DNA of 64,000 bases from Vicinamibacterales bacterium (GTDB lineage: Bacteria > Acidobacteriota > Vicinamibacteria > Vicinamibacterales > UBA2999). The stretch's first letter is position 1. Every line of letters begins with the position of its first letter. A model generated the notes under the pieces. The model was not told where the DNA came from and made no database searches. It saw only the letters and a list, made by a program, of their open reading frames with translations. Made by a program: the position numbers and the translations under genes. This document shows, one piece after another, positions 42,702-58,292 of this stretch. The stretch lies in NCBI GenBank assembly GCA_050250875.1, contig JBFWNV010000001.1, forward strand, positions 1,619,891 to 1,683,890, read 5' to 3'.

Positions 42702-42712
42702 CCGCGGCCTGG

Positions 42713-43033
42713 TCAGTCGTCGTCGAATTCGAAGGCCACCGTCACCCGCGCGCCCTCTTCCTTCACGCCGCGGACGCGCCTGGGCACGGGCAGGAAGCCC
42801 GACCCGTCCTTGCTGCGCCAGAGGCTCGTGCTCCAGGCCACGCCGTCGAGTTCGGCGCGGATGGGCGTGCGACCCCAGGCCCGGGTGATCGGCGGCGCCA
42901 GCCGCTGGGGCACCTGCACGTAAGTCCAGCCGCCTTTGCCGGGGATGCGGGCCAGAACGGCGCGGAACGGGCCGCGCCGGATTGACGCTCGGGGCACGTT
43001 CGAAGCGTGGACTTGCGCCGACGTGCGGCGCAA
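42713..43033 (-). CDS. DUF1905-family protein
   Basis: Track ORF, 106 aa. FRAVLARIPGKGGWTYVQVPQRLA...VTVAFEFDDD fits the small DUF1905 beta-barrel family. It lies 15 nt downstream of yceI on the same strand. The start codon is uncertain. Confidence 0.6.
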   Translation of the reverse strand: MRRTSAQVHASNVPRASIRRGPFRAVLARIPGKGGWTYVQVPQRLAPPITRAWGRTPIRAELDGVAWSTSLWRSKDGSGFLPVPRRVRGVKEEGARVTVAFEFDDD

Positions 43034-43048
43034 GCCCCTTCTCGTCCG

Positions 43049-43594
43049 CTAGGCCACCCTGGTCGCGGCCTGACGCACCGCCTCGACCTCGATCTCGAGC
43101 GTCACGGTGTCGCCGACCATCACGCCGCCGGTCTCGAGCACCTGGTTCCAGCCCAGGCCGAACGCCTTGCGGTCGAGGGTGGTCCGCGCCGAGAACGCCG
43201 CGCGCTGGTTGCCCCACGGGTCCTTCACCGTGCCGAGCGACTCGACGTCGAGGGCGATCTCGCGGCTGATGCCCTTGAGCGTCAGCTGGCCGACCAGGCG
43301 GTAGTCGTCGCCGCGCTTCTCGATCCCCGAGCTCTTGAAGGTGGCGTCGGGGAACTGCGCCACGTCGAAGAAGTCGGCCGACTTGAGGTGCGTGTCGCGG
43401 TCGGCGACGCCGGTTTCGATGCTCGAGGTGTCGATGGTCGCTTCGACGGTGGCCTGGCTGAAGTCGCCGTCGGGGACGACCACGGCGCCGCTCCACCGGC
43501 CGAACTGGCCGCGCACCTTGGCGATGACGAGGTGGCGCACCGAGAAGTGGATGCCGGAGTGGCTGCTGTCGATTTCCCAACGCTGCGTGGCCAT
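43049..43594 (-). CDS. YceI-like polyisoprenoid-binding protein
   Basis: Track ORF 43049..43663 trimmed to Met24 (ATG 43594, with AGGAG 9 nt upstream). MATQRWEIDSSHSGIHFSVRHLVIAKVRGQFGRWSG is the YceI-family signature. Confidence 0.9.
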   Translation of the reverse strand: MATQRWEIDSSHSGIHFSVRHLVIAKVRGQFGRWSGAVVVPDGDFSQATVEATIDTSSIETGVADRDTHLKSADFFDVAQFPDATFKSSGIEKRGDDYRLVGQLTLKGISREIALDVESLGTVKDPWGNQRAAFSARTTLDRKAFGLGWNQVLETGGVMVGDTVTLEIEVEAVRQAATRVA

Positions 43595-43646
43595 GTCTGT
43601 AAGCTCCTGAATGAGTTGTCCGACTGTCGAGCGATACTCACAACAG

Positions 43647-43662
43647 AGCAACAGTCGTGCCA
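43647..43662 (-). promoter_or_regulatory. Sigma-54 (-24/-12) promoter for yceI-DUF1905
   Basis: The minus strand reads TGGCACGACTGTTGCT, matching the consensus TGGCACG-N4-TTGCW at every conserved position. It lies about 50 nt upstream of the yceI ATG, in the divergent region shared with a sigma-54 activator gene. Confidence 0.7.
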
Positions 43663-43757
43663 TAACGTCTGATGTTGAAAATCAACAACTTGGTGGCGAT
43701 ATCAGTCAAAATGACAATCGAAATGATAATCTAGACTCTCACAATGAGAGTTTTCCC

Positions 43758-45389
<1,632 letters not shown>

Positions 45390-45445
45390 CGGCTGGCGGC
45401 CAGGACGCCTTGACCAGGCGATTGCCACTCTGCTCTAGTGACGCG

Positions 45446-45931
45446 GTGTCCGGCCGCCTGCGGATCGACGTCGTGGTCAACGGCACGGCGCGCGCCGGCG
45501 AGGTCGAACCCCGGCTCCTGCTGAGCGACTTCCTGCGCCAGGACCTCGGCCTCACCGGCACGCACGTCGGCTGCGAGCACGGCGTCTGCGGCGCGTGCAC
45601 GGTGCTGGTGGACGACCAGCCGGTGCGAGCCTGCCTGATGTTCGCCGTGCAGGCCGACGGCACCAGGGTGACCACCGTCGAAGCGCTCGCCGCGCCGGAC
45701 GACGGCGCGCTCAATCCGCTGCAGGCGGCGTTTCGCGACGCGCATGCCCTGCAGTGCGGCTTCTGCACGCCCGGCATCCTGATGAGCATGACGGCGTTCC
45801 TGCGCGAACAGCCGGCGCCGTCCGAGGCGGCGATCCGCGAGGCGCTCTCCGGTCACCTGTGCCGCTGCACCGGCTACGCCAACATCGTCCGCGCGGTCGC
45901 CCACGCCGCCCATGACGCGCGTCCTCGGTAG
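45446..45931 (+). CDS. Molybdenum hydroxylase small subunit, [2Fe-2S] (CoxS-like)
   Basis: This is track ORF 45410..45931; I prefer the in-frame GTG at 45446 (MSGRLRIDVVVNG...). The cluster motifs are CEHGVCGACTV, CGFCTPG and CRCTGY. Confidence 0.88.
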   Translation: MSGRLRIDVVVNGTARAGEVEPRLLLSDFLRQDLGLTGTHVGCEHGVCGACTVLVDDQPVRACLMFAVQADGTRVTTVEALAAPDDGALNPLQAAFRDAHALQCGFCTPGILMSMTAFLREQPAPSEAAIREALSGHLCRCTGYANIVRAVAHAAHDARPR

Positions 45932-48260
45932 CCGCGTCCCCCGCAACGAAGACGCGCGGCTGCTCACCGGCCGGGCGCTGTTCGTCGACGACGTCCAGCG
46001 CGAGGGCATGCTCCACGTGGCGTTCCGCCGCAGCGACCGCGCGCATGGCCGGTTGCGGTCGGTGGACGTGACGGCGGCGCGGGCCCGGCCCGGCGTCGTC
46101 GCCGTGTACACCGCCGCCGACCTGGGCGACTACTGGCAGCCGGGTCCGCTGCTGGTGCCGCCGCCGCCGGTGCCCGGCATGACCTTCAACGCCTGCACGC
46201 AGGTGCCGCTGGCCCGCGACAAGGTGCGCTACGCCGGCGAGCCGGTGGCGATGGTGGTGGCCGAGAGCCGCTACGTGGCCGAGGACGCGGCGGCCGACGT
46301 CGTCGTCGCCGTCGAGCCGCTCGAGGCGGTCGTCGATCTGGAAGCGGCGCTGGCGCCGTCGGCGCCGCGGCTGCACGAGCACCTGCCGTCGAACCTGGCC
46401 GCTCACGTGCACCAGACCAAGGGCGACTACGCCGCCGCCCGCGCCGCCGCCCAGCTGGTCGTCGCCCGCCGCTTCCGTTACGACCGCGGCGCCGCGGCGG
46501 CGATCGAGAACCGCGCCGTCGCCGCCCAGTGGGATCCGCGCAGCGAGCAGCTCACCGTGTGGGACACCACCCAGGCGCCGATTCCCATCAGGAACGGCCT
46601 GGCCCGGATGCTCGGCCTGGCCGAGTCGCAGGTGCAGGTGATCGCGCCATTCGTCGGCGGCGGGTTCGGGCCGAAGATCATGATGTTCTACCCCGAGGAG
46701 GTGCTCGTGCCGTGGGCGGCGCGGGCGCTCGGCCGGCCGGTGAAGTGGACCGAGGACCGGCTCGAGAACTTCGTCGCCACCACCCAGGAGCGCAGCCAGA
46801 TCCACGACGCCGAGATCGCGCTCGCCGCCGACGGCCGCATCCTCGGCGTGAAGGACGTCTTCCTGCACGACACCGGCGCCTACGACCCCTACGGCCTCAC
46901 CGTGCCGATCAACTCGCAGTGCACGCTGCTCGGCGTCTACCGCGTGCCGGCCTACGACAGCGAGTTCCGCGCCGTCTTCACCACCACGCCGATCGTGACG
47001 CCGGTGCGCGGCGCCGGCCGCCAGCACGGCGTGTTCGTGATGGAGCGACTGCTCGACCTGGCGGCCCGGCAGCTCGGGATCGACCGGCTCGAAATCCGCC
47101 GCCGCAACCTGCTTCGTCCGGACGAGTTCCCGCACGATCACGGCATCGTCTTCCAGGACTTCACCTCGCTCACCTACGACAGCGGCGACTACCTGCCGGC
47201 GATGGAGCAGGCGGCGGAGATGATCGGCTACGACCGCTTCCGGCGCGAGGAGCAGCCGCGGCTGCGCGCCGAGGGGCGCCGGGTCGGCATCGGCCTGGTG
47301 AACTACGTCGAGGGCACCGGCATCGGCCCGTACGAGGGCGCGCGGGTCACCGTCGAGCCGAGCGGCCTGGTGCGCGTGGCGACCGGCGTGGGCACGCAGG
47401 GGCAGGGCCACTTCACGGCGTTCGCGCAGATCGTCGCCGAGGTGCTCGGCGTGGACGTGGCCGCCGTGCGGGTCGTGACCGGCGACACCCGCGAGTTCAA
47501 CTGGGGCACCGGCACCTTCGCCAGTCGCGGCGCCGTGGTGGCCGGCACGGCGTGTCATCAGGCGGCGGTGGCGGTGCGGCAGAAGGTCTTCGAGCTGGCC
47601 GCGCGCCTGCTCGGCGTCTCCGCCGACGATCTCGTGCTCGCCGCTGGACGCGTGCATCGCGCCGGCGACCCGGCTGCGGGGCTGGCGCTCGGCGAGCTGG
47701 CGGCGAAGGCCAACCCGCTGCGCGGCGCGGTCACGGCCGGCGTCGAACCCGGCCTCGAGGCCACGGCCTATTTCGGGCCCGACCGCGGCAGCACGGCCAA
47801 CGGCGTGCACGCGATGATCGTCGAGGTCGATCCCGACACGGCGATCGCCCGCATCCGGCGCTACGTCGTCGTCCACGACTGCGGCCACCTGGTGAACCCG
47901 ACCATCGTCGAAGGCCAGATCCAGGGCGGCGTCGCCCACGGCATCGGCAACGCGTTCTACGAGCAGCTGGTGTTCGATCGCCAGGGACAGCTGACCACGG
48001 CGTCGTTCATGGACTACCTGCTGCCGCTCGCCACCGACGTGCCCGACGTGGAGATGGCGCACCGCGAGACCGCGGCGCCGGGCAACCCGGCGGGGCTCAA
48101 GGGCGTCGGCGAGGCCGGCTGCATCGCCACCGGCGCCCTCTTCGCCCAGGCGGTCGAGGACGCGCTGGGCGGGGACGTGGAGATCCTCGAGATTCCGCTC
48201 AGCCCGAACCGCCTGTTCGAGCTGATGCAGGCGACCGCCGCCAAGGGCCCGACGGCATGA
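45912..48260 (+). CDS. Molybdenum hydroxylase large subunit, molybdopterin-binding (CoxL/xanthine-dehydrogenase family)
   Basis: Track ORF, 782 aa. The N-terminus is RVPRNEDARLLTGRALFVDDV, with FVGGGFGPK and GVGEAGCIATGA. It overlaps the small-subunit gene by 20 nt. Confidence 0.9.
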   Translation: MTRVLGSRVPRNEDARLLTGRALFVDDVQREGMLHVAFRRSDRAHGRLRSVDVTAARARPGVVAVYTAADLGDYWQPGPLLVPPPPVPGMTFNACTQVPLARDKVRYAGEPVAMVVAESRYVAEDAAADVVVAVEPLEAVVDLEAALAPSAPRLHEHLPSNLAAHVHQTKGDYAAARAAAQLVVARRFRYDRGAAAAIENRAVAAQWDPRSEQLTVWDTTQAPIPIRNGLARMLGLAESQVQVIAPFVGGGFGPKIMMFYPEEVLVPWAARALGRPVKWTEDRLENFVATTQERSQIHDAEIALAADGRILGVKDVFLHDTGAYDPYGLTVPINSQCTLLGVYRVPAYDSEFRAVFTTTPIVTPVRGAGRQHGVFVMERLLDLAARQLGIDRLEIRRRNLLRPDEFPHDHGIVFQDFTSLTYDSGDYLPAMEQAAEMIGYDRFRREEQPRLRAEGRRVGIGLVNYVEGTGIGPYEGARVTVEPSGLVRVATGVGTQGQGHFTAFAQIVAEVLGVDVAAVRVVTGDTREFNWGTGTFASRGAVVAGTACHQAAVAVRQKVFELAARLLGVSADDLVLAAGRVHRAGDPAAGLALGELAAKANPLRGAVTAGVEPGLEATAYFGPDRGSTANGVHAMIVEVDPDTAIARIRRYVVVHDCGHLVNPTIVEGQIQGGVAHGIGNAFYEQLVFDRQGQLTTASFMDYLLPLATDVPDVEMAHRETAAPGNPAGLKGVGEAGCIATGALFAQAVEDALGGDVEILEIPLSPNRLFELMQATAAKGPTA

Positions 48261-49132
48261 AGCCGGCGCCGTTCGCGTATCACCGGCCGGCGACGCTCGA
48301 CGAAGCGCTCCACCTGCTGGCCGAGCACGGCGGCGACGCCAAGCCGCTGGCCGGCGGCCAGAGCCTGGTGCCGGCGATGAACTTCCGCCTCGCCCAGCCG
48401 GCGGTGCTCGTCGACCTGAACCGGCTGGCTGGACTTGCCGCCCTCGAGCGACACGACCTCGGGAGTCGTTTCGGCGCCATGGCACGTCACCGCGACCTGG
48501 AGCACAGCCCGGTCGTGGCCGAGCGCGCACCGCTGGTCGCCGCGGCGATGCCGTGGGTGGCGCATCCGCCGATCCGGACCCGTGGCACGCTCGGCGGCAG
48601 CCTGGCGCACGCCGACCCGGCGGCGGAGCTGCCGGCGGTGATGCTGGCGCTCGACGCCTCGATCGGCGTGCGGCACCAGACCGGCTCGCGCGCCATCGCG
48701 GCCGCCGACTTCTTCCTCGGCCTGTTCACGACCGCGCTGGCGCCCGGCGAGCTGATCGTGGACGTCACGGTGCCGCCGCCGCCGCCGCGGAGCGGCTGGG
48801 CCATCGACGAGGTGTCGCGGCGGCACGGCGACTTCGCGCTGGCCGGCGCCGCGGCCTTCGTCACGCTCGACGACGAGGGCCGCGTCGGCACGGCGCGGAT
48901 TGGCCTGTTCGGCGTCCACGACTGCGCGGTGCGCGCCGTCAATGCCGAGCGGATCCTGGCGGGCCAGGCGCCGACCGACCAGGCGATCGCCGCCGCCGCC
49001 GACGCCGCTGCCCGGCGCGATGCCAGCCCGGTGACCGACCTGCACGCCTCCGTGCTCTATCGCCGCCATCTGACCGGCGTGCTGGTGCGGCGGGTCGTGG
49101 CCCGCGCCGCCGCGCGCGCCGGTTCGAACTGA
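48257..49132 (+). CDS. Molybdenum hydroxylase medium subunit, FAD-binding (CoxM-like)
   Basis: This is the last 291 aa of track ORF 46529..49132, starting at ATG 48257 (ATGA overlap). MKPAPFAYHRPATLDEALHLLAEHGGDAKPLAGGQSLVPAMNFRLA is the typical FAD_binding_5 N-terminus. Confidence 0.88.
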   Translation: MKPAPFAYHRPATLDEALHLLAEHGGDAKPLAGGQSLVPAMNFRLAQPAVLVDLNRLAGLAALERHDLGSRFGAMARHRDLEHSPVVAERAPLVAAAMPWVAHPPIRTRGTLGGSLAHADPAAELPAVMLALDASIGVRHQTGSRAIAAADFFLGLFTTALAPGELIVDVTVPPPPPRSGWAIDEVSRRHGDFALAGAAAFVTLDDEGRVGTARIGLFGVHDCAVRAVNAERILAGQAPTDQAIAAAADAAARRDASPVTDLHASVLYRRHLTGVLVRRVVARAAARAGSN

Positions 49133-49136
49133 CGTC

Positions 49137-50561
49137 ATGGCGGCGCCGCTCATCAACGCCGACCTGGCGCCGACGGCACCGGCTGCCCGTACGTGGAACC
49201 TCTGGCACATCGCCTCGCTCTGGGTCGGCATGAGCGTGTGCATCCCGAGCTACATGCTGGCCTCGACGATGATCGGCGCCGGCATGGGCTGGCGGGCCAG
49301 CCTGCTGGCGGTGTTCCTCGGCAACCTGATCGTGCTCGCGCCCATGGTCGTCACCGCGCACGCCGGCACCCGCTACGGCATCCCGTTCCCGGTCTTCGCC
49401 CGCGCCGCCTTCGGCACGCGCGGCACCCACGTGCCGTCGCTGCTCCGGGCGGTGGTGGCGTGCGGCTGGTTCGGCATCCAGACCTGGGTCGGCGGCCTGG
49501 CCATCCACGCGCTGCTCGGGGTGGCCTGGCCGGCCTTCACCGCGCTCGGCGGCGGCTGGCGGTTCATGGATCACACCGCGGCCGAGTTCGTGAGCTTCTT
49601 CGTGTTCTGGGCCGTCAACCTCTACTTCGTCTGGGCCGGCACCGAGAGCATCAAGTGGCTCGAGACGGTGTCGGCGCCGCTGCTGATCGCGCTGTCGCTG
49701 TCGCTCCTGTGGTGGGGCGCCTCGGCGGCCGGCGGCGTCGGTGCGATGCTGGCCGGCGCCGACCGCTTGAGCGCCGGCGGCGGCGGGGCAGGGCTCGCCG
49801 TGTTCCTGCCGTGGGTCACGGCGATGGTCGGCTACTGGGCGACGCTGTCGCTGAACATCCCCGACTTCTCGCGCTTCGCGCGCACCCAGCGCGACCAGGC
49901 CGTGGGGCAGGCCCTGGGCCTGCTCACCACGATGCCGTTCATCGCCTTCATCGGCGTGGCCGTGACCGGGGCCACGGTGGTGGCGTTCGGCGAGGCGGTG
50001 TGGAACCCCGTGGACCTGCTGGCCCGGCTCAGCGAGCGGTCGGGGAACCCGCTGCTCGGCGTCGTGGCCATGGCGGCGCTGCTCGTCGCCACGCTGACCA
50101 CCAACATCGCCGCCAACATCGTCGCCCCGGCCAACAGCTTCTCGAACCTGGCCCCGCAGCGTGTGGGCTTCCGGCTCGGCGGCCTCATCGCCGGCGCGAT
50201 CGGCGTCCTCATCGTGCCGTGGGCGCTGCTCGATCGGTATCAGACCTGGCTCATCACCTACTCGGGCCTGCTCGGCGCGGCGGCCGGCGTGCTGCTGGCC
50301 GACTACGTGCTGGTGCGGCGCGGCGTGCTGGTGGTGGAAGAGCTGTACGACCCCCGAGGCCGTTACGCCTATCGCGACGGCGTGAACCCGGCGGCGATGG
50401 TCGCGCTCGCCGCCGGCGTCGCCACCGCGCTCGTCGGGCTGGTCGTGCCCGGGCTGCGGCTGCTGTTCGACGCCGCGTGGTTCTCGGGCGCGATCGTCGC
50501 GGCGGTCGTGTATCGTGCGCTGATGCGCGGCGAAGCCGTGCCCTTCCCGGAGCGTCCATGA
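49137..50561 (+). CDS. NCS1-family nucleobase/hydantoin-type cation symporter
   Basis: Track ORF, 474 aa. DLAPTAPAARTWNLWHIASLWVGMSVCIPSYML and GTRYGIPFPVFARAAFGTRG...GWFGIQTWVGG are NCS1 signatures. Confidence 0.88.
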   Translation: MAAPLINADLAPTAPAARTWNLWHIASLWVGMSVCIPSYMLASTMIGAGMGWRASLLAVFLGNLIVLAPMVVTAHAGTRYGIPFPVFARAAFGTRGTHVPSLLRAVVACGWFGIQTWVGGLAIHALLGVAWPAFTALGGGWRFMDHTAAEFVSFFVFWAVNLYFVWAGTESIKWLETVSAPLLIALSLSLLWWGASAAGGVGAMLAGADRLSAGGGGAGLAVFLPWVTAMVGYWATLSLNIPDFSRFARTQRDQAVGQALGLLTTMPFIAFIGVAVTGATVVAFGEAVWNPVDLLARLSERSGNPLLGVVAMAALLVATLTTNIAANIVAPANSFSNLAPQRVGFRLGGLIAGAIGVLIVPWALLDRYQTWLITYSGLLGAAAGVLLADYVLVRRGVLVVEELYDPRGRYAYRDGVNPAAMVALAAGVATALVGLVVPGLRLLFDAAWFSGAIVAAVVYRALMRGEAVPFPERP

Positions 50562-51355
50562 AGACCTACGACCTGTCGCAGCCGCTCAACCAGGAGTGCT
50601 CGTTCTGGCCGTTCTACCCGCCGTTCGAGGTCAAGTACATCAAGCGCAAGGCCGAGCACGGCGTCAACGCGCAGTACATCATGACGTCGAACCACATGGG
50701 CACGCATCTGGATGCGCCGCGGCACTTCGTGACCAGCGGCATGACCATCGACGAGATTCCGGTCGAGTGGCTGTGCGGTCCCGGCGCGCTGGTCGATCTC
50801 TCCGACGCGATGGACGACTTCGATCTCTACACGCCGAAGATGATCGAGGACCGCGTCGAGGTGAAGCAGGGCGACCTGCTGTTCCTGCACACCGGCTGGG
50901 AGCGCTTCGCCCAGTTCGGGGCCACGCCCGACGAGGAGCGCTACATCCACCGCCATCCCGGCGCCCATCCCGACATGGTGCCGTGGCTGCTCGACAAGGG
51001 CATCCACATCTGGGGCGTGGACTGCATCTCGACCGACCATCCGATGAACCTGCCGATCGGCCGCTTCCTCGGCAAGGGCGCGCACGGCCACTGCGACCGG
51101 GTGCGCGCGGCGTGCGAGGCAAAGTTCGGCGGCCCCGACGGCGTGGCGGCGCTGTTTCCCGATTCGGCCTACCAGCTCACGCACAACGCGCTGTTCCCGG
51201 CCAACTGCATGCACATCGAGAACCTGGGCGGCGACATCGCCGCGCCCGAGCTGCAGAACCGCCGGCTGATCCTCGGCATCTTCCCGTGGAAGTTCCGCGG
51301 CGGCGAGGCGGCGTTCGCGCGGGCGGTGGCGTTCACGGGCGACTGGACGCCGTGA
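50558..51355 (+). CDS. Cyclase-family metal-dependent hydrolase (kynurenine formamidase / isatin hydrolase fold)
   Basis: This is the last 265 aa of track ORF 49193..51355, starting at ATG 50558 (ATGA overlap). It carries the HMGTHLDAPRH motif of the cyclase family. Confidence 0.85.
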   Translation: MKTYDLSQPLNQECSFWPFYPPFEVKYIKRKAEHGVNAQYIMTSNHMGTHLDAPRHFVTSGMTIDEIPVEWLCGPGALVDLSDAMDDFDLYTPKMIEDRVEVKQGDLLFLHTGWERFAQFGATPDEERYIHRHPGAHPDMVPWLLDKGIHIWGVDCISTDHPMNLPIGRFLGKGAHGHCDRVRAACEAKFGGPDGVAALFPDSAYQLTHNALFPANCMHIENLGGDIAAPELQNRRLILGIFPWKFRGGEAAFARAVAFTGDWTP

Positions 51356-52797
51356 GCACCGCCCCGCGTGCACTGGTCGATCGGTCCGCCACCGAGCTGC
51401 GCCACCTGGTGGCGACGCGGCAGGTGTCGGCGCGCGAGCTGCTGCGGGCCACCCTGGCGCGCATCGCGCAGGTGAACCCGGTGGTCAACGCCGTCGTCAC
51501 GCTGAACGAACGCGCCGAGATCGAGGCGCAGGCGGTGGACGACGCCCTGGCCCGCGGCGAGGCCCCGGGGGCGCTGTGCGGCCTGCCGGTGGGCATCAAG
51601 GACGTCACGCCGGTGGCCGGCGTGCGCACCACCTACGGCTCGCCGCTGTTCGTGCACCACGTGCCCGACCGCGACGCGGCCGTCGTCACCCGGCTGCGGC
51701 AGGCCGGCGCGGTGATCGTCGGCAAGACCAACTGTCCGGAGTTCGCCGCCGGCGGCAACACCTTCAACGAGGTGTTCGGACGCACCGTCAACCCGTGGGA
51801 TACCGCCAGGAGCGCCGGTGGATCGACCGGCGGCGGCGCCGCCGCGCTCGCCACCGGGATGATCGCCCTGGCCGAGGGCACCGATCTCGGCGGCTCGCTG
51901 CGCATCCCGGCGTCGTTCTGCGGCGTGTGCGGCATCCGGCCGTCGGTGGGCCTGGTGCCGACCGCGCCGACCGGCTGGGCCTGGGACACGCTGCAGGTGA
52001 GCGGGCCGATGGGCCGCACCCCCGCGGACGTGGCGTTGATGCTGCAGGCGATGGCCGGCGCGTCGCCCGCGGCGCCGCTGGGCCAGCCGATTGCCGGGCG
52101 CGATTTCGCGGCCGCCGTGGCCCGCGGGGTCCGGCGCGGACTGCGCGTCGCCTACGCGCCCGACCCGGCCGGGATCGGCATCGACGCCGACGTCGAGCGG
52201 GTCTGCCGCGCGGCCGTCGCCACGCTGGGCGAGGCCGGCGCCGTCGTCGCCGAGCACCCGCTCGATCTCGCCTTCGTCCGGCCGGCGTTCCTGGCGCTGC
52301 GCGGCCTGTGGTTCGTGACCCAGCTGCACGGGCAGCTGGCGCTGCGCGACCGCTTCGGGCCGAACGTCGCCGGCAACATCCGCGCCGGCCTGGAGACCTC
52401 CGTCGCGCAGCTGGCCGAGGCCGAGCAGGTGCGGGGCCGGCTCTGGGACCTGTGCCGCGATCTCTTCTCCGGCGTCGACTGCGTCGTCACGCCGTGCATG
52501 GCGGTGCCGCCGTTCCCGGTGACCGAGAACTACCCGGCGACCATCGCCGGCCGGCCGATGGCCACCTACGTGGACTGGATCGCGCCGACCTTCGTGTGGA
52601 GCATGACCGGTCTGCCGGTGGCGGCCGTGCCCGCCGGCCGCGACGCGCACGGCCTGCCGGTCGGCCTGCAGATCGTCGGTCCGCCGCTCGGCGAGGAAGT
52701 GGCGCTGGCCGTGGCCGCCGCGGTGGCGGAGCGCTGCCCGATCGGCGACAGTCCCCTGTCACGCTCCGCCCGGAACGGGGACGGTCCCCGGGCATGA
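51352..52797 (+). CDS. Amidase-signature family amidohydrolase
   Basis: This is the last 481 aa of track ORF 50596..52797, starting at GTG 51352 (GTGA overlap). The AS motifs are GLPVGIKD, GGSTGGGAAALA and GTDLGGSLRIPASFCG. Confidence 0.88.
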   Translation: MSTAPRALVDRSATELRHLVATRQVSARELLRATLARIAQVNPVVNAVVTLNERAEIEAQAVDDALARGEAPGALCGLPVGIKDVTPVAGVRTTYGSPLFVHHVPDRDAAVVTRLRQAGAVIVGKTNCPEFAAGGNTFNEVFGRTVNPWDTARSAGGSTGGGAAALATGMIALAEGTDLGGSLRIPASFCGVCGIRPSVGLVPTAPTGWAWDTLQVSGPMGRTPADVALMLQAMAGASPAAPLGQPIAGRDFAAAVARGVRRGLRVAYAPDPAGIGIDADVERVCRAAVATLGEAGAVVAEHPLDLAFVRPAFLALRGLWFVTQLHGQLALRDRFGPNVAGNIRAGLETSVAQLAEAEQVRGRLWDLCRDLFSGVDCVVTPCMAVPPFPVTENYPATIAGRPMATYVDWIAPTFVWSMTGLPVAAVPAGRDAHGLPVGLQIVGPPLGEEVALAVAAAVAERCPIGDSPLSRSARNGDGPRA

Positions 52798-53549
52798 CTT
52801 ATCTCGATCCCGCCGTTCCGCGCCGGATCGACGGCTGGCAGAGCCCGGCCCTCGGCCTGCCGATGCCGGTCGTCACCTACGGCGACCGCGGTCGTCCGCT
52901 GCTGCTGTTTCCGACCGCCGCCGCCGACTTCCTCGAGAACGAGCGCTTCTTCCTGGTCAAGGCGATCGAGCCGGCGATCCTCGCCGGCCACGTGCGCGTG
53001 TTCTCCATCGACAGCATCAACAAGCACGCGTGGATGGACCGCGAGGTGCCGGTGGCCGAGCAGGGGCGCCGTCAGGCGCTCTACGCGCGCTACATCGAAG
53101 AGGAAGTGGTGCCGTTCATCCGCCACGCCTGCGGCGACCCGTCGGTGCGCATCGCCACGACGGGCGCCAGTTTCGGCGCGTTCCACGCCGCCAACAGCCT
53201 GTGCCGCCGGCCGGATCTCTTCGACGGGCTGATCGGGATGAGCGGCTTCTACGATCTCGAGCCCGACTATCTGAAGGGCTACAGCGACGCCAACTGCTAC
53301 TTCAACAACCCGGCGTGGTACCTGCGCGAGTTGTCGGGCGAGCCGCTGCGTCTGCTGCAGACCGCCTGCCGCATCGTGATCGTGAGCGGACGCGGCGCCT
53401 ACGAGGCGCCGCAGGCCTCGCAGGCGTTCGCCGACCTGCTCGCCTCACGTGGCATCCCGCACACGCTCGAGTTCTGGGGCCACGACGTGAACCACGACTG
53501 GCCGTGGTGGCGGCGGATGCTGCCGCACTACCTGCCGCAGGTCTGTTGA
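52794..53549 (+). CDS. Alpha/beta-hydrolase esterase-family protein
   Basis: This is the last 251 aa of track ORF 51576..53549, starting at ATG 52794 (ATGA overlap). It has the nucleophile elbow G-A-S-F-G (TTGASFGAFHAANS). The substrate is unknown. Confidence 0.65.
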   Translation: MTYLDPAVPRRIDGWQSPALGLPMPVVTYGDRGRPLLLFPTAAADFLENERFFLVKAIEPAILAGHVRVFSIDSINKHAWMDREVPVAEQGRRQALYARYIEEEVVPFIRHACGDPSVRIATTGASFGAFHAANSLCRRPDLFDGLIGMSGFYDLEPDYLKGYSDANCYFNNPAWYLRELSGEPLRLLQTACRIVIVSGRGAYEAPQASQAFADLLASRGIPHTLEFWGHDVNHDWPWWRRMLPHYLPQVC

Positions 53550-53553
53550 CGGC

Positions 53554-54414
53554 TCACTGCACCGCCGCCAGGCCCTCGGTCAACTCGACGTAGGTGCCCC
53601 ACGGATCGGTGAAGAACGCGATCGCGATGTTGAGCGCCGCCACCTTGGTGTAGGGCCGATCGAACTTCACGCCCTTGGCTTCGAGGTCCTTGACGAACTG
53701 CTCGAGGTTGCGGACCTCGAAGCCGATGTGATCGAGCGCCCGGCCCTTGGTGGAGACCGGCGTCTCGCCGGCCGCCGCGCCGCCGAACGTGAGGTTCACG
53801 CCGGGCAGATCGCCGGCCTCGAAGGTGCCGCGCTTGCCGGGCCTGGCGCCGAGCATCTGCACGTACCACGCTTTCATCGCCGCGATGTCGGGCGCCGCCC
53901 AGTGGATGTGGTGCATGACGATGGCGTGCGGGATCGCCTTGTTCTCGATCAACTCGACCTTGGTCTCGTCGGGGCCCAGCACGAAGGCGAGCCGGTTCGG
54001 GCTGTTCGGCGGGGAGGCGATGTCGTCGACCACGCTGTAGGCCGCGGGCGACTCGGCGCGGGTCGCCATCACGAAGCCGTTGGCCTTCAGGCGGTCGATG
54101 GCGGCGCGCAGGTTCGGCACCTCGAACCCGACGTGGTTCACCACCGTGCCCTTGGTGCCGCCGGTGGCCGCCCGCGCCGTGACGAACACCAGCACGTTGG
54201 GGAACTTGACGATGGTCGCCGGCGAGGTGCCGATGGTGACCGGCGTGCCGCCGAGCCCGTCCACCCAGAACTTGCGGTGCGCGGCGACGTCGCTGGCGTT
54301 GATGTGATGGTGCCCGTAGGCGACCGGGCCGTCCTTGGCGGCGAGCAGCTGCGCCGACGCCGGTGCCGGCAGCAGCAGGAGTCCCGAGACGAGGGCGAGA
54401 CAGAGGATGCGCAT
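53554..54414 (-). CDS. Secreted two-domain VOC (glyoxalase/dioxygenase-fold) protein
   Basis: Track ORF, 286 aa, with signal MRILCLALVSGLLLLPAPASAQ. It contains two VOC-like modules (HHHINASD...VNHVGFEVPNL and MHHIHWAAPD...LDHIGFEVRNL). Confidence 0.8.
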   Translation of the reverse strand: MRILCLALVSGLLLLPAPASAQLLAAKDGPVAYGHHHINASDVAAHRKFWVDGLGGTPVTIGTSPATIVKFPNVLVFVTARAATGGTKGTVVNHVGFEVPNLRAAIDRLKANGFVMATRAESPAAYSVVDDIASPPNSPNRLAFVLGPDETKVELIENKAIPHAIVMHHIHWAAPDIAAMKAWYVQMLGARPGKRGTFEAGDLPGVNLTFGGAAAGETPVSTKGRALDHIGFEVRNLEQFVKDLEAKGVKFDRPYTKVAALNIAIAFFTDPWGTYVELTEGLAAVQ

Positions 54415-54460
54415 AGCCGCCTACGATACCGCCGATTGCGGCTCGGCGCACCGGGTGGCG

Positions 54461-55606
54461 TCAGCGGCGTGGCGACACGCCGGGCCAGGGGTCGGCGAAC
54501 CGCGGATCGCCCAGCAGCGCCTCGTCGGTCAGCGACTCGAGGAACGCGAGAAGGTCGGCGCGCTGGCCAGGCGTGAGCCAGAAGCCGCGCACCCCCTCGC
54601 TCTTGTTCGGGTTGTCGTGGCCGACGCCCTGGTTCGGCCCGTCGGCGATGGTGCGGCCGCCGTCGGCGTAGTGATCGATGACGTCGCCGAGCGTGGCCAC
54701 GCTGCCGTCGTGCATGTAGGGCGCGGTGACCGCGATGTTGCGCAGCGACGGCGTCTTGAACAGGCCGACGTCTTCGGCGCGGCCGGTCTCACGGTGCAGG
54801 CCGGTGTCGCTGGCCGGATACGAGAACGGGCCGCGCAGGTTGTAGAGGCCGTTGTTGCGGAAGGCCGGCGGCCCCGCCGGCTCGGCGCTCATCGCGTTCG
54901 AGAAGTGCACGCCGCCGTGGCAGGTGAAGCACGACAGCGGTCGGCTGTGGAACAGCATCTCGCCGCGCTTCGCCGACGCCGAGATGGCGCTGTCGTCGCG
55001 ATCGAAGTGGTAGCGATCGTAGGGCGAACGCATCGAGACCAGCGCGCGCTCGAACCCCGCCAGTGCCCTGGTCACGTGCTCGACGGTGAAGCGCGTGACG
55101 CCGGGGAACGCCGCGGGCAGCAGGCGCCGATAGGTGGCATCGGCCGACAGCCGGTCGAGCCAGCGGGTGTCGGCGCGGTCGAGTCCGAGTTCGACCGGAT
55201 CGGTGCCGTACATCGGCACCAGGGCCTGATGCTCGAGGCGGGTCATCGCCGGGTTGGCCCACGTCAGCGTCTCGGCGTAGGCCACGTTCACCAGGCTCAT
55301 GCTGCTGCGGACGTGCGCCTGCCCGGTGGAGCCGACGCTGTGCGGCTTGCCGTCGGTGAAGGCGCGGGCCTGCTCGTGGCAGGCGGCGCACGACTGCGTG
55401 CCGTTGGCCGACAGGCGCGTGTCGTAGAAGAGATGCCGGCCCAGCTCGACCAGCGCGTCCGACATCGGGTTGTCGGGCGGCACCTGCGGCGGGCGCACGC
55501 CGGCGGGGAGCGACCACGAGTAGCCGGCCCGCGCCGGCAGTGTCGTGGCGCCGGCCACCGCCAGCCACAGGGCGATGGCGCCCGCAAACGCCGTGCGCAT
55601 GGTCAT
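54461..55606 (-). CDS. Di-haem cytochrome c peroxidase-fold enzyme (MauG/MbnH-like)
   Basis: Track ORF trimmed to MTMRTAFAGAIALWLAVAGATTLPARA (signal). There are two CxxCH motifs (CAACHE, CFTCHG). LFYDTRLSANGTQSCAACHEQARAFTDG is typical of the MbnH/MXAN_0977-like branch. Confidence 0.85.
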   Translation of the reverse strand: MTMRTAFAGAIALWLAVAGATTLPARAGYSWSLPAGVRPPQVPPDNPMSDALVELGRHLFYDTRLSANGTQSCAACHEQARAFTDGKPHSVGSTGQAHVRSSMSLVNVAYAETLTWANPAMTRLEHQALVPMYGTDPVELGLDRADTRWLDRLSADATYRRLLPAAFPGVTRFTVEHVTRALAGFERALVSMRSPYDRYHFDRDDSAISASAKRGEMLFHSRPLSCFTCHGGVHFSNAMSAEPAGPPAFRNNGLYNLRGPFSYPASDTGLHRETGRAEDVGLFKTPSLRNIAVTAPYMHDGSVATLGDVIDHYADGGRTIADGPNQGVGHDNPNKSEGVRGFWLTPGQRADLLAFLESLTDEALLGDPRFADPWPGVSPRR

Positions 55607-55617
55607 GGGCGCGATCG

Positions 55618-56157
55618 CTACTTGCGGAGCCGCACCACCTCGAGCCGCTCGAGCATGCGGATCGAGCGCGCCCCGCGCGAGTCCTTCGGCGCCACGATCC
55701 GCCACGGCCCCTGGTAGGCGAAGAGCGGCTTGCCGTCGATGGTGTCGGCGACCATGATGTCGTTCGCGGTGAACGCGTTGTCGAGTTCCGGCAGCGAGAA
55801 CACCACCTGGTAGCCGTCGGCGGCGCCGGCCGTCACGTAGGTGGCCACGGCGTTGCCGCGCAGGTTCTCACCCAGCGGCACGCCGGCCTTCTTCAGGATC
55901 TCGCCCACCAGCACCCCCTCGTAGGTGACGACGCGGCCCTCGTCCTTCACCTCGGCCCTGGTGCGCGGCATCGCCTTCAGATCGGCGACGCTGAGGGCGA
56001 GCGGGGTGGCGACGTCGCCGGCGACCGTCAGCGTCGTCGGGGCGGCGGCGGTCGGCGCCGCCGGCTTGGCGGTGCCGGGAGCCGCCTGTGCCCCGGCCAC
56101 CGACGGCACGCTCACCGTGAGCGCCAGGAACCAGGCCGCGAGAGCCAATCGAGTCAT
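55618..56157 (-). CDS. Small secreted molybdopterin-oxidoreductase-like domain protein
   Basis: Track ORF 55618..56724 trimmed to Met190 (MTRLALAAWFLALTVSVPSVAGA signal). LTVAGDVATPLALSVADLKAMP...YEGVLVGEILKKAGVP...AADGYQVVFSLPEL...GPWRIVAPKD resembles the stand-alone Oxidored_molyb-type domain. It is only 179 aa. Confidence 0.6.
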   Translation of the reverse strand: MTRLALAAWFLALTVSVPSVAGAQAAPGTAKPAAPTAAAPTTLTVAGDVATPLALSVADLKAMPRTRAEVKDEGRVVTYEGVLVGEILKKAGVPLGENLRGNAVATYVTAGAADGYQVVFSLPELDNAFTANDIMVADTIDGKPLFAYQGPWRIVAPKDSRGARSIRMLERLEVVRLRK

Positions 56158-56177
56158 GAGCGCACTCCCGTCGCAGT

Positions 56178-58292
56178 CTACAGTCCGATCCGCGTCTTGA
56201 CGAAGAAGGTCCGGCCCGGCTGCGGGAAGCCCCATGCCAGCTCGAAGTTGTCGTCGGTCAGGTTGCGCCCGCCGACCATCAGCTCGATGCCGCCCGGAAA
56301 GGTGTACTGCGCCGACAGGTTCAGCATGGTGTAGGCGCCGGTGCGGACGTAGGGGAAGGCGGGGGCCGGGTTCACGTCGCTCCAGCGGTCGCCGGCCAGG
56401 TCGAGGCTGGGCGAGATGGCCAGCCGATCGACGGGCGTGAAGGTGGCGTGCACGAACGCCTTGTGCGTGGGCACGCCGGTGGGCCGCAGGTTGGGCTGCA
56501 GCGCGTCGGTGATGGTGCGGCGGATCCAGGTGTAGTTGCCGCCGACGCGGACCCGGTCGCCGAGCGGCAGGTCGCCGGCCACCTCGGCGCCGTAGAACTC
56601 GCCGTCGCCGACGTTCCGGGTTTGCGTCGTCGCGTCGGGCAGCACCACCGTCTGGATCAGATCGCGCACGTCGCTGTAGAACACCGCGCCTTCGAGCCGA
56701 GCGCCGCCGACCGTGCCCTTCCACCCCAGTTCGAGGTTGGTGGCGCGCTCCGGCCCCAGATCCGGATTCGGCGTGGCGGTGCCGAACCGCGTGCTGTAGA
56801 GCTCGAAGATCACGGGGAAGCGCGCCCGATTCGAGACGCTGGCGTGCACCTCCGCAGTCGGCGTGTAGTACCAGATCGCCGCGCCCTGCCAGTTGAACGA
56901 GTCGGCGCCGCCCCGCGGGTATTCGAAGAGGCCGCGCGCGGCACTGAACTCCTGCGCCTTGTCGATCGCATAGCTTTCGACGCTGACGCCGGCCACGAGA
57001 GCGAGGCTCGCGCTGGCGCGGAACGTGTTCTCGACGGCCAGCGACCAGGTGTGCTGCTCCTGCTCCTGCGTGGGCTCGGTCGTGCTCGCCGTCGGATGCG
57101 TCGGCCGACTGACCTGTGATTCGCTGTGGAAGTCGGCGCGGTAGTGCGCGGCGGCCTTGAGCGTGTTCGCCGCGATCGCCGTCGTGCCCACCTCGACGGT
57201 GCCGCCGTAGGCATGGTCGTCGTAGGGGCTGAAGAAGCGGCCGTTGGCCGATTGCAGGGTGTAGGTGCCGTCGTCGTAGGCCTCGAGCCCGTTCTCGAAC
57301 GTGTTGTAGTAGATGCGGGTCTTGGCGTAAGTCGTGCCGGTGAGCTGGGTGCGCGACAGGAACGAGACGTTCTGCAGGTCCCAGTACGGCCAGCGCCAGT
57401 AGCTGTTGGGCGGCACCGGCGGGTTGTTGTTCACGTTGAGCGGCGCGCCCTTCTCGCCCTCCTGGCGCGTGTAGTTGACGGTGTACTCGTCGGTGGTGTT
57501 CGGCGTGAAGCCGACCTTGGCGTTGACGCGCCAGTCGCGGCTGTCGGAGCCGACCCGGCGGCCGCCGGGCTGCAGCGAGTTGACCGGCGCCGCGTAGTCG
57601 CTGGAGAGCGTCCAGAAGTCACGGTCCGAGGCGTTGAGGCTGCCCTGGGCGTAGAAGCGCTCGTGGCGCGTGCCGGCCATGGCGTAGCCGCTCCACGCCT
57701 CGCGGTCGTCGCGCCCACCCAGCCACGCCGCGCCCTCGACCTCGAGCGGCCGCGTCGGTTTGCGGGTCACCAGGTTGATCGCGCCGCCCATGCCGCCCGG
57801 GCCGTCGATGACCGACGCGTAGCCCTTCTGCACCTGCACGGCGGCGACGTCGGCGGTGAGGAAGCGGGCGAAGTCGAGGCGGTTGTCGGCCGGCAGGTAG
57901 ATGCGGACGCCGTCCATCATCAGTGGCACCTGCCAGCGGCCGAAGCCGCGGACGAACACGTCGCTCTCGTTGCGCCGGCCGTTGGCGTCGAAGGTGCTGA
58001 CCACGCCCGGCACCATGTTCACGGCCTGGTCGAGGTACTGGCGGTCGAAGGTCCACATCGACTCGCGGGTCAGGATGGCGCCGCCGACCCCCGGCGTGCC
58101 CTCGGTGGTGCCGACGACCACGATTTCACCGAGGTCGAAGATGAAGTCGCGATCGCCGGGCTGGGCGGGTGCCGGGGCGGCTGGCGCCGGTGTCGGCTGC
58201 GGCGACGGCGTCTGTGCGTTCGCCGCCCGCCCCGCCAGACCCATGCCCAGCCACGCCATCACTGCCGTCGTCCGCACCCACGCTCGCGTCAT
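56178..58292 (-). CDS. TonB-dependent receptor
   Basis: Track ORF, 704 aa, with a signal peptide and a Pro/Ala-rich linker. It has a plug (VFVRGFGRWQVPLMMDGVRIY, VQKGYASVIDGPGGMGGAINLVT) and a beta-barrel. The C-terminus is TFFVKTRIGL. Confidence 0.9.
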   Translation of the reverse strand: MTRAWVRTTAVMAWLGMGLAGRAANAQTPSPQPTPAPAAPAPAQPGDRDFIFDLGEIVVVGTTEGTPGVGGAILTRESMWTFDRQYLDQAVNMVPGVVSTFDANGRRNESDVFVRGFGRWQVPLMMDGVRIYLPADNRLDFARFLTADVAAVQVQKGYASVIDGPGGMGGAINLVTRKPTRPLEVEGAAWLGGRDDREAWSGYAMAGTRHERFYAQGSLNASDRDFWTLSSDYAAPVNSLQPGGRRVGSDSRDWRVNAKVGFTPNTTDEYTVNYTRQEGEKGAPLNVNNNPPVPPNSYWRWPYWDLQNVSFLSRTQLTGTTYAKTRIYYNTFENGLEAYDDGTYTLQSANGRFFSPYDDHAYGGTVEVGTTAIAANTLKAAAHYRADFHSESQVSRPTHPTASTTEPTQEQEQHTWSLAVENTFRASASLALVAGVSVESYAIDKAQEFSAARGLFEYPRGGADSFNWQGAAIWYYTPTAEVHASVSNRARFPVIFELYSTRFGTATPNPDLGPERATNLELGWKGTVGGARLEGAVFYSDVRDLIQTVVLPDATTQTRNVGDGEFYGAEVAGDLPLGDRVRVGGNYTWIRRTITDALQPNLRPTGVPTHKAFVHATFTPVDRLAISPSLDLAGDRWSDVNPAPAFPYVRTGAYTMLNLSAQYTFPGGIELMVGGRNLTDDNFELAWGFPQPGRTFFVKTRIGL

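Follow-up and report, generated by a model that had tools for sequence, protein, structure and literature searches.

A packed gene cluster of a Vicinamibacterales bacterium as a candidate oxidative pyrimidine pathway with a cyclase-fold ring-opening enzyme

The DNA stretch analysed here, a 64,000-nucleotide section (hereafter the window) of contig JBFWNV010000001.1 from a Vicinamibacterales bacterium, an uncultured soil acidobacterium, contains seven same-strand genes at about 45446-53549 (+) that are packed through overlaps of start and stop codons. They encode the small, large and medium subunits (S, L and M) of a molybdenum hydroxylase, an NCS1-family transporter, a metal-dependent hydrolase of the cyclase family (PF04199), an amidase-signature enzyme and an alpha/beta esterase. 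On balance, we regard it as probable that this operon serves oxidative pyrimidine breakdown, in which uracil or thymine would be degraded through (methyl)barbiturate and ureidomalonate to malonate and a cyclase-fold enzyme would replace barbiturase. Such a route had been named as a speculative option in a preliminary description of the same DNA. Among the readings considered here it is favoured by comparative sequence evidence, namely a deaminase gene within an orthologous module, ligases resembling malonyl-coenzyme A (CoA) synthetases, nucleobase carriers and two parallel operons. The pathway type itself is known, if little studied; the ring-opening enzyme family, the candidate gene assignments and the wide spread in uncultured soil phyla would be new.

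In the proposed pathway, the NCS1 symporter would import uracil or thymine, and at loci with a deaminase gene it may take up cytosine, which would then be deaminated. The three-subunit molybdenum hydroxylase would place a water-derived hydroxyl group at C6, which would give barbiturate or 5-methylbarbiturate. The cyclase-fold metal hydrolase, as a non-homologous substitute for barbiturase, would open the cyclic amide to ureidomalonate, and the amidase-signature enzyme would cleave an N-acylurea or half-amide to malonate and urea or ammonia. Either of these two hydrolases is a candidate for the ring-opening step. In many relatives, a MatB-like ligase would then produce malonyl-CoA or methylmalonyl-CoA. 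The gene content and the order of uptake, hydroxylation and C–N bond hydrolysis that had been put forward are consistent with the data. In the known oxidative route, three enzymes take uracil to malonate and urea (PMC3758960), so that the enzyme count matches the core of the module. Uracil is the common nucleobase that a hydroxylase, a cyclic amidohydrolase and an amidase together convert fully to central metabolites.

The more specific assignments are held with less confidence, at somewhat under an even chance. According to these, SML would be the uracil/thymine dehydrogenase and the cyclase-family protein a non-homologous barbiturase or ureidomalonate hydrolase. Uncultured soil members of the Acidobacteriota, Gemmatimonadota, Longimicrobia and related phyla would commonly have the pathway, in some variants together with AllFG(H)-like proteins that recover carbamoyl phosphate.

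Gene organization

The gene for S (45446-45931, 161 amino acids) overlaps the gene for L (45912-48260, 782 amino acids) by 20 nt in the translation of the proposed genes, with the stop of S at 45931 and the start of L at 45912. L is joined to M (48257-49132, 291 amino acids) by an ATGA overlap at 48257, and only 4 nt separate the end of M at 49132 from the start of the NCS1 gene at 49137 (49137-50561, 474 amino acids). Further downstream, an ATGA overlap at 50558 links the NCS1 gene to the cyclase gene (50558-51355, 265 amino acids), a GTGA overlap at 51352 links the cyclase gene to the amidase gene (51352-52797, 481 amino acids), and a last ATGA overlap at 52794 links the amidase gene to the esterase gene (52794-53549, 251 amino acids). 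All of these junctions had been listed in the preliminary description and are borne out, and its domain calls for the seven proteins are upheld by Pfam and NCBIfam profile searches. Its operon start at 45394 has to be corrected, as this position is out of frame with the small-subunit gene.

The open reading frame of S opens at an in-frame TTG (45410), and the GTG at 45446 is the sole start that is in frame and also conserved in the two closest relatives (loci L008 and L010). S most likely begins at this GTG, which yields a protein of 161 amino acids as in L008. No terminator-like site is present at any gene junction; the only match, a weak one within the esterase gene, is no more than expected by chance. 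No RNA family was found when 42500-54600 was scanned with Rfam. Given the gene overlaps and the absence of terminator-like sites and Rfam families, co-transcription is likely. The G+C content is about 73% across the window. A protein annotated as 'MAG: Vicinamibacterales bacterium' agrees with the amidase in its entire sequence (100% identity), and the same gene run is also found on a contig of assembly GCA_050182705.1.

Distribution of the module

Relatives of the cyclase-family protein occur in at least 588 stretches among GTDB species-representative genomes, and 80 of these loci were compared. A second set of 80 loci was found by scanning metagenomes with the deaminase of locus L099 (see below) as query, and about 180 related loci were compared in total. 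Counts over 63 given here refer to those of the 80 loci that have enough flanking sequence.

The conserved unit consists of six genes, which are S, L, M, an optional NCS1 gene, the cyclase-family gene and the amidase gene. It is found again in hundreds of MAGs (metagenome-assembled genomes) of Acidobacteriota and Gemmatimonadota. The claim of a seven-gene operon is too broad for this unit, since the esterase gene adjoins the module in this genome only and is a local addition. In 59 of 63 loci, the cyclase gene is preceded by L and M on its own strand. The amidase gene directly follows the cyclase gene in 51 of 65 loci and is found anywhere in the locus in 57 of 65, and an NCS1 gene is inserted between M and the cyclase gene in 19 of 63. 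Median identities to the window proteins are 81% for the cyclase, 74% for L, 70% for S, 65% for both the amidase and the NCS1 protein, and 60% for M. Apart from the module itself and the MatB-like ligase, a census of neighbouring genes in the 80 loci shows no cluster shared by more than a few of them. What surrounds the module changes from one locus to the next and includes genes for peptidases, lectins, sensor kinases, toxin-antitoxin systems and the like. High identities across phyla in combination with unrelated flanking genes suggest that the module is mobile and self-contained.

A full-text literature search found no paper that describes this gene combination. That the gene set does not match the xanthine, nicotinate, picolinate or caffeine clusters, as had been stated, agrees with our searches: no characterised operon of this composition was found, and L reaches no NCBIfam equivalog cut-off.

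Several individual loci deviate from the common arrangement. In L002 (CP070670.1, a closed 2.96-Mb genome of Gemmatimonadota), S, L and most of M are missing, and a 74-residue CO_deh_flav_C remnant abuts a truncated EF-Tu gene and a ribosomal-protein operon. The metagenome contig L003 encodes a cyclase protein identical to that of L002 and has an intact module; the absence of these genes from L002 would be explained by a deletion or rearrangement or, alternatively, by an assembly join. In L006 and L007 (Calditrichota), which have no adjacent hydroxylase, the cyclase gene stands with genes for a type III CoA-transferase, the amidase, a succinate-semialdehyde-dehydrogenase-like protein and AllH. 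L100, likewise with no adjacent hydroxylase, has MatB-like, SnoaL, cyclase, DUF2784 and amidase genes beside malate synthase and isocitrate lyase. The module is also found in MAGs labelled Bifidobacteriaceae, Bifidobacterium or Brocadiaceae (L009, L012, L024 and L054), where the cyclase is 82-95% identical to that of the window; the taxonomy given for these bins looks questionable.

Genomic context and substrate

A link to pyrimidines within an orthologous module comes from L099, where L is 70% and the cyclase 79% identical to the window proteins. The gene order at this locus is S, L, CoxG, M, NCS1, deaminase, cyclase and a MatB-like CoA ligase. The deaminase of 151 residues has its best solved relatives in yeast cytosine deaminase with 99 bits, compared to 54 bits for TadA. 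The CoA ligase is found in about 22 loci. In L003, L042 and L099 its gene is part of the operon, and in many loci of Gemmatimonadales it immediately follows the amidase gene in convergent orientation. Its best solved relatives are malonyl-CoA synthetases (4fuq with 314 bits and 3nyq with 286 bits; next best 212).

Parallel operons lead in the same direction. L133 encodes a cytosine-deaminase-like protein, a large subunit 54% identical to L of the window, FdrA/AllF, AllG and a ring-opening amidohydrolase of the AtzD/TrzD family; an AtzD-like gene of the same kind adjoins a deaminase gene in L177. L104 contains the deaminase as in L133, M (57% identical), S (67%), an amidase-signature amidase, FdrA/AllF, AllG and a cyclase-family protein. 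Because L133 and L104 are otherwise parallel, cyclase-fold and Toblerone-fold enzymes fill equivalent slots. AllG carries the Pfam name 'oxamate carbamoyltransferase subunit', and the substrate of oxamate carbamoyltransferase is oxalurate, an N-acylurea one carbon shorter than ureidomalonate. On haloarchaeal plasmids, a 39%-identical cyclase is encoded with an XDH-family hydroxylase, a dihydropyrimidinase-like amidohydrolase and NCS2 carriers, and the cluster of Halostagnicola (L088) contains CodA and CodB too, both above their NCBIfam cut-offs. Among the seven operon proteins of the window, the Pfam search found no AtzD/TrzD-type (PF09663) barbiturase; matches to this family on plasmids are ordinary atzD/trzD genes. 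We conclude that the gene neighbourhoods of orthologous and parallel operons speak for pyrimidines.

A number of observations weigh against oxidative pyrimidine breakdown or weaken its support. The cytosine-deaminase link within an orthologous module comes from the single locus L099, no amidase gene is present within 10 kb of that module, and most of the 80 loci that carry the L099-type deaminase have it in unrelated contexts. The window contains no MatB-like ligase, and the ligases of the relatives, for which malonyl-CoA synthase is the best NCBIfam model, remain below its cut-off (396-401 bits compared to 558). The large subunit on the haloarchaeal plasmids is only 30-34% identical to L of the module, so that this system is analogous and not orthologous. 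The AtzD-family protein of L133 scores as a cyanuric acid hydrolase, both with NCBIfam (462 bits, cut-off 360) and in comparison with PDB sequences (379 bits for cyanuric acid hydrolase and 295 for barbiturase). In the window itself, the NCS1 gene is the only linked gene of pyrimidine type, the linkage to deaminases and carriers coming from a few other loci, and each contextual clue comes from a small number of loci. In the haloarchaeal and L104 variants, the cyclase is accompanied by different amidohydrolases. All carriers of the module are MAGs. The literature searched contains no assignment of genes to the dehydrogenase (EC 1.17.99.4) or to ureidomalonase (EC 3.5.1.95), which makes a sequence comparison with the Rhodococcus enzymes impossible.

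Enzymes and transporter of the module

The Pfam matches of S, M and L are far above cut-off and satisfy the three-subunit architecture of the xanthine dehydrogenase (XDH)/CoxL family. S, with two [2Fe-2S] clusters predicted, matches Fer2_2 with 107 bits and Fer2 with 33 bits and contains eight cysteine residues. The FAD-binding subunit M matches FAD_binding_5 with 166 bits and CO_deh_flav_C with 76 bits, and the molybdopterin-binding subunit L matches Ald_Xan_dh_C, MoCoBD_1 and MoCoBD_2. No characterised enzyme is close to L; its best solved relatives are QorL (1t3q, 514 bits), KdhL (482 bits) and the mycobacterial CoxL (482 bits). The catalytic glutamate is found in GVGEAG (residues 731-736), aligned with GMGES of QorL, and the glutamine of the molybdenum site in TTQAP (residue 219), aligned with ATQMP. 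The active-site loop of L reads VRGAGR (residue 365) and has no cysteine. True CO dehydrogenases have a copper-binding cysteine in an AYxCSFR active-site loop. In line with this, L does not score as a form I CoxL, with 509 bits for TIGR02416 (cut-off 991), and it reaches no NCBIfam equivalog cut-off, including those of XdhA, PucD and related models. Judged from its cysteine-free loop and from the presence of the catalytic glutamate and the molybdenum-site glutamine, the SML enzyme is a hydroxylase and not a CO dehydrogenase.

The large subunit of L133 (8457-10841) passes the NCBIfam model NF040766 (CODH_aero_grp5) with 1092 bits at a cut-off of 950. Despite the CO-dehydrogenase name of this model, it is encoded between the genes of the cytosine-deaminase-like protein and the AtzD-family hydrolase. 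As this one model scores the clade of the window and L133 large subunits near or above its cut-off, its name may mis-annotate them. A second XDH-family hydroxylase set, 30-36% identical to the module L, is present in 11 related loci. It is upstream and divergent in L052, L056, L057, L068, L072, L077, L079 and L082, often directly adjacent, and is also found in L008, L013 and L043. This second set was tested as an orthologue of the haloarchaeal large subunit and is not orthologous. The best matches to L in a plasmid collection (45-50% identical, in Serratia, Variovorax and Nonomuraea) have unrelated contexts and gave no functional lead.

The cyclase-family protein matches the Pfam Cyclase model with 129 bits (cut-off 23). 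The metal motif HMGTHLDAPRH (residues 46-56), H161, H219 and E221 are invariant in 24 homologues. Identity ranges from 77 to 97% across Acidobacteriota (Vicinamibacterales and Thermoanaerobaculia), Gemmatimonadota, Longimicrobia, Calditrichota and KSB1. The AlphaFold2 model is of medium quality, with a mean predicted local distance difference test (pLDDT) score of 71.6 and values below 50 in the region of the metal motif. Searched with Foldseek, the model gives isatin hydrolase 4m8d as top match (E 2e-11), and the top 28 matches all belong to the PF04199 family. We propose the protein as a candidate ring-opening cyclic amidohydrolase and barbiturase analogue.

It is the most conserved of the module proteins, and its gene (50558-51355) has a G+C content of about 0.69 compared to 0.73-0.76 in its neighbours. 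Very strong constraint, horizontal spread of the module or a combination of the two could account for this. A database protein of 409 residues (P0006) joins CO_deh_flav_C and cyclase domains. The C-terminus of M may truly be fused to the cyclase here, or gene calling may have joined the two, and both cases fit the adjacency of the two genes. A 35%-identical cyclase of Rhodococcus ruber was considered as a lead and set aside, as it is encoded inside a Rieske-oxygenase/nitrilase cluster and belongs to a different pathway.

The amidase matches Pfam Amidase (PF01425) with 330 bits and contains the complete triad, with K83 in GIKD, S158 in GGSTGG and S182 in GGSLR. It reaches none of the named amidase-signature subfamilies against which it was scored, neither AtzE (231-242 bits, cut-offs 426-461) nor GatA (228 bits, cut-off 481) nor the allophanate hydrolase models (148-169 bits, cut-offs 487-511). 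Its best model is the unnamed subfamily PRK07486 with 408 bits at a cut-off of 465. We propose it as a candidate amidase for ureidomalonate (an N-acylurea) or for malonamate. The best plasmid-collection matches to the amidase (42-47% identical) come from unrelated contexts and, like those to L, offered no functional lead.

For the NCS1-family nucleobase:cation symporter, the Pfam model Transp_cyt_pur (PF02133) scores 355 bits, while TIGR00800 scores 347.9 bits, just under its cut-off of 353.1. The best NCBIfam matches are allantoin permeases, and the best structural match is the hydantoin carrier Mhp1, whose alignment covers residues 3-471. The equivalents of Mhp1 W117, Q121, W220, N314 and N318, which we take to be the residues that bind the ligand or its ureide ring, are conserved in the window protein. 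The transporter is a candidate substrate importer of the module.

Alternative substrates and functions

The enzyme families of the module set the types of reaction and not the substrate. The same sequence of import, hydroxylation and two C–N cleavages could therefore act on another small polar N-heterocycle, such as a ureide derived from purines or of imidazolone/hydantoin type, a modified pyrimidine, or an s-triazine analogue (5-azauracil, converted to cyanuric acid). We consider this doubtful, though clearly the most serious of the alternatives. It is in keeping with the NCS1 protein being nearest to allantoin permeases and to Mhp1, with the scoring of the L133 AtzD-like enzyme as a cyanuric acid hydrolase, and with the AllF/G/H-like genes (by their Pfam names), which stand for allantoin and oxalurate metabolism in E. 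coli; the neighbouring NCS2 and Xan_ur_permease carriers would equally fit purines. Chemistry restricts this choice, however, because hydantoin, allantoin and creatinine have no sp2 C–H beside nitrogen that a molybdenum hydroxylase could attack. A purine route past urate or xanthine would require several further enzymes outside the module, and s-triazines are too rare in nature to account for at least 588 genome stretches. The deaminase inside the L099 operon is far closer to cytosine deaminase than to other enzymes of the cytidine-deaminase fold, and the malonyl-CoA-synthetase-like ligases suit a C3 dicarboxylate product, both of which argue for the pyrimidine substrate instead.

Two further readings are both unlikely. 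If the operon belonged to a quinoline-, nicotine- or indole-type pathway for aromatic N-heterocycles, a lactam-forming hydroxylase would be followed by a cyclase resembling isatin hydrolase or arylformamidase under XylR-type control, and the amidase and esterase would finish the side chains. The nearest solved large subunits, quinoline 2-oxidoreductase and 6-hydroxypseudooxynicotine dehydrogenase, agree with this, as do the nearest cyclase structures (isatin hydrolase and kynurenine formamidase) and the XylR_N/V4R activator directly upstream. Yet no oxygenase or ring-cleavage dioxygenase is present in or near the module in the 80 loci, which also excludes a logic of the nic, pic, qor or caffeine type. 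The carrier is of the nucleobase type (NCS1) and not an aromatic-acid carrier, the activator, whose consensus promoter points away, is limited to 2 of 80 loci, and the esterase is not conserved with the module. Moreover, the cyclase lies far below the arylformamidase (KynB) equivalog TIGR03035 (65 bits, cut-off 223), and the identity to QorL is moderate, with 514 bits over 770 residues. We regard this pathway as improbable. More improbable still is that SML represents a 'form II' CoxL-type CO or aldehyde dehydrogenase unrelated to the downstream hydrolases, with which it would be packed by accident. It is true that the top NCBIfam models of L are the aerobic carbon-monoxide dehydrogenase large subunit group 5 (NF040766, 892 bits) and the glyceraldehyde dehydrogenase alpha subunit (598 bits), but both scores are under the respective cut-offs of 950 and 790, the VRGAGR loop does not contain the cysteine of the copper-binding loop, and genes for coxD/E/F/G are absent here. 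The same-strand association of SML and cyclase genes in 59 of 63 loci over several phyla shows that the packing is not incidental.

Upstream region and regulation

A gene for an activator with XylR_N, V4R, sigma-54 AAA+ and HTH_8 domains (43758-45389, +) is located directly upstream of S. The XylR_N match begins at residue 56 of the long open reading frame, and the ATG at 43758 follows an AT-rich spacer; the true start is probably this ATG. The preliminary description had placed the operon downstream of this small-molecule-sensing activator, and the position is confirmed. Control of the operon by the activator does not follow from it: the consensus promoter is on the opposite strand, and a close homologue of the activator is found in only 2 of the 80 loci (L008 and L010). 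The sequence TGGCACGACTGTTGCT (43647-43662, -) is the only match with zero mismatches to TGGCAC-N5-TTGCW in the 64 kb, and it faces a yceI-like gene (43049-43594, -; Pfam YceI), away from the operon. The yceI-like gene begins with an ATG (43594) that has an AGGAG ribosome-binding site, and the promoter is about 50 nt upstream of this codon. The divergent spacer of 163 nt is AT-rich and holds the palindrome GTTGAAAATCAAC (43674-43686) and the tandem CAGTCAAAATGA / CAATCGAAATGA, at which the XylR_N/V4R activator probably binds. The activator thus probably controls the divergent yceI-like gene, which is followed by a DUF1905 gene (42713-43033).

The window, L008 and L010 share a conserved block of sequence immediately before S (45410-45445, +), whose surroundings are not conserved. 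It consists of a -35-like TTGACC, a spacing of 18 nt, a weaker -10-like TCTAGT, and GACGCG abutting the GTG start. A generic promoter scan did not call this block, which is a possible sigma-70-type promoter. The block has no conserved GG-N10-GC, and no -24/-12 sigma-54 promoter that is conserved in relatives precedes the operon. As a candidate sigma-54 promoter, the weak GG-N10-GC at 45394-45409 was rejected, since it has a poor -12 element and is not conserved in L008 or L010. With the lone consensus sigma-54 site facing the opposite way and the block before S lacking GG-N10-GC, the link between activator and operon is positional only.

Esterase and flanking genes

The alpha/beta esterase matches Pfam Esterase (PF00756) with 35.5 bits and has a GASFG motif at residue 124. 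It had been taken as a step of the pathway, and this part of the earlier proposal has to be dropped: the gene is found in 1 of the 80 related loci (L010), 4 kb from the amidase gene and beside the same glyoxalase gene as in the window, and homologues with 70-93% identity sit in unrelated housekeeping contexts. Homology of the window to its relatives ends about 50-75 nt before the stop codon of the amidase gene. The last 16 or so residues of the amidase are unique to this genome, and this tail ends in the ATGA overlap. From the homology break, the unique tail, the layout of L010 and the housekeeping contexts of the homologues, the esterase is best described as a housekeeping-type gene that was joined to the 3' end of the operon by local rearrangement.

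Convergent with the esterase gene (53554-58292, -) are genes for a two-domain glyoxalase/VOC protein and a MauG-type di-haem peroxidase, followed by a small Oxidored_molyb protein and a TonB-dependent receptor. The pair of glyoxalase and esterase genes is conserved in L010.

Comparison with known systems

Biochemical knowledge of the oxidative pyrimidine pathway dates back to the 1950s. If the proposed pathway is true, genes would be assigned to two of its activities, EC 1.17.99.4 and EC 3.5.1.95, and the 'form II CoxL' proteins that make up a large clade would receive a function. The cyclase/KynB/isatin-hydrolase fold would gain a third catalytic role as a non-orthologous replacement of the Toblerone-fold barbiturase. 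Abundant and largely uncultured soil phyla may then recycle nucleobases of necromass into carbon and nitrogen. AtzD/Bar homologues are found in about 3% of genomes and the pathway is considered rare (PMC3758960); in uncultured soil phyla it would instead be common.

The described pathway of Rhodococcus erythropolis comprises uracil/thymine dehydrogenase (EC 1.17.99.4), barbiturase (EC 3.5.2.1) and ureidomalonase (EC 3.5.1.95), as far as the account of Soong et al. 2001/2002 cited in PMC3758960 goes. The operon resembles it in having one hydroxylation, one ring-opening amidohydrolysis and one cleavage of a linear amide in the same order, in a predicted malonate end product that matches the MatB-like ligases of relatives, and in the cytosine deaminase and nucleobase carriers of related loci. 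It differs in that a cyclase-fold PF04199 hydrolase is encoded where the AtzD/TrzD-fold barbiturase would be, and in its hosts, which are Acidobacteriota, Gemmatimonadota and other uncultured soil phyla and not Actinomycetota. The AtzD/TrzD/barbiturase and AtzE system is similar in its chemistry, as a trioxo six-membered nitrogen ring is opened hydrolytically and an amidase-signature enzyme then acts on an N-acylurea carboxylate, and L133 even places an AtzD-family enzyme beside a large subunit related to that of the window. In contrast to this system, the ring opener of the window is of unrelated fold, a hydroxylase step is needed upstream, and the amidase scores well below AtzE.

With QorSML (1t3q) and KdhSML (7dqx), the hydroxylase shares the three subunits with molybdenum, iron-sulfur and FAD cofactors, the catalytic glutamate and the cysteine-free loop of form II type. 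Identity is moderate, however. The substrates of Qor and Kdh are bicyclic or pyridyl aromatics, and their operons contain oxygenases and lack NCS1, cyclase and amidase genes. The nicotinate (nic), picolinate (pic), xanthine (xdh/puc) and caffeine (cdh) systems likewise start with an XDH-family hydroxylase, but their oxygenases, decarboxylases or uricase-type enzymes are absent from the operon of the window. The cyclase-family protein shares the fold and the HxGTHxDxPxH metal motif with isatin hydrolase and kynurenine formamidase (4m8d, 4j0n, 4co9), and isatin hydrolase is an opener of a cyclic amide, like the role proposed here. It is set apart from both by 17-24% identity, by different genomic partners, by its score below the arylformamidase equivalog, and by a highly conserved C-terminal half of about 100 residues (STDHPMNLPIGRFLGKG...) that phmmer does not align to the solved KynB.

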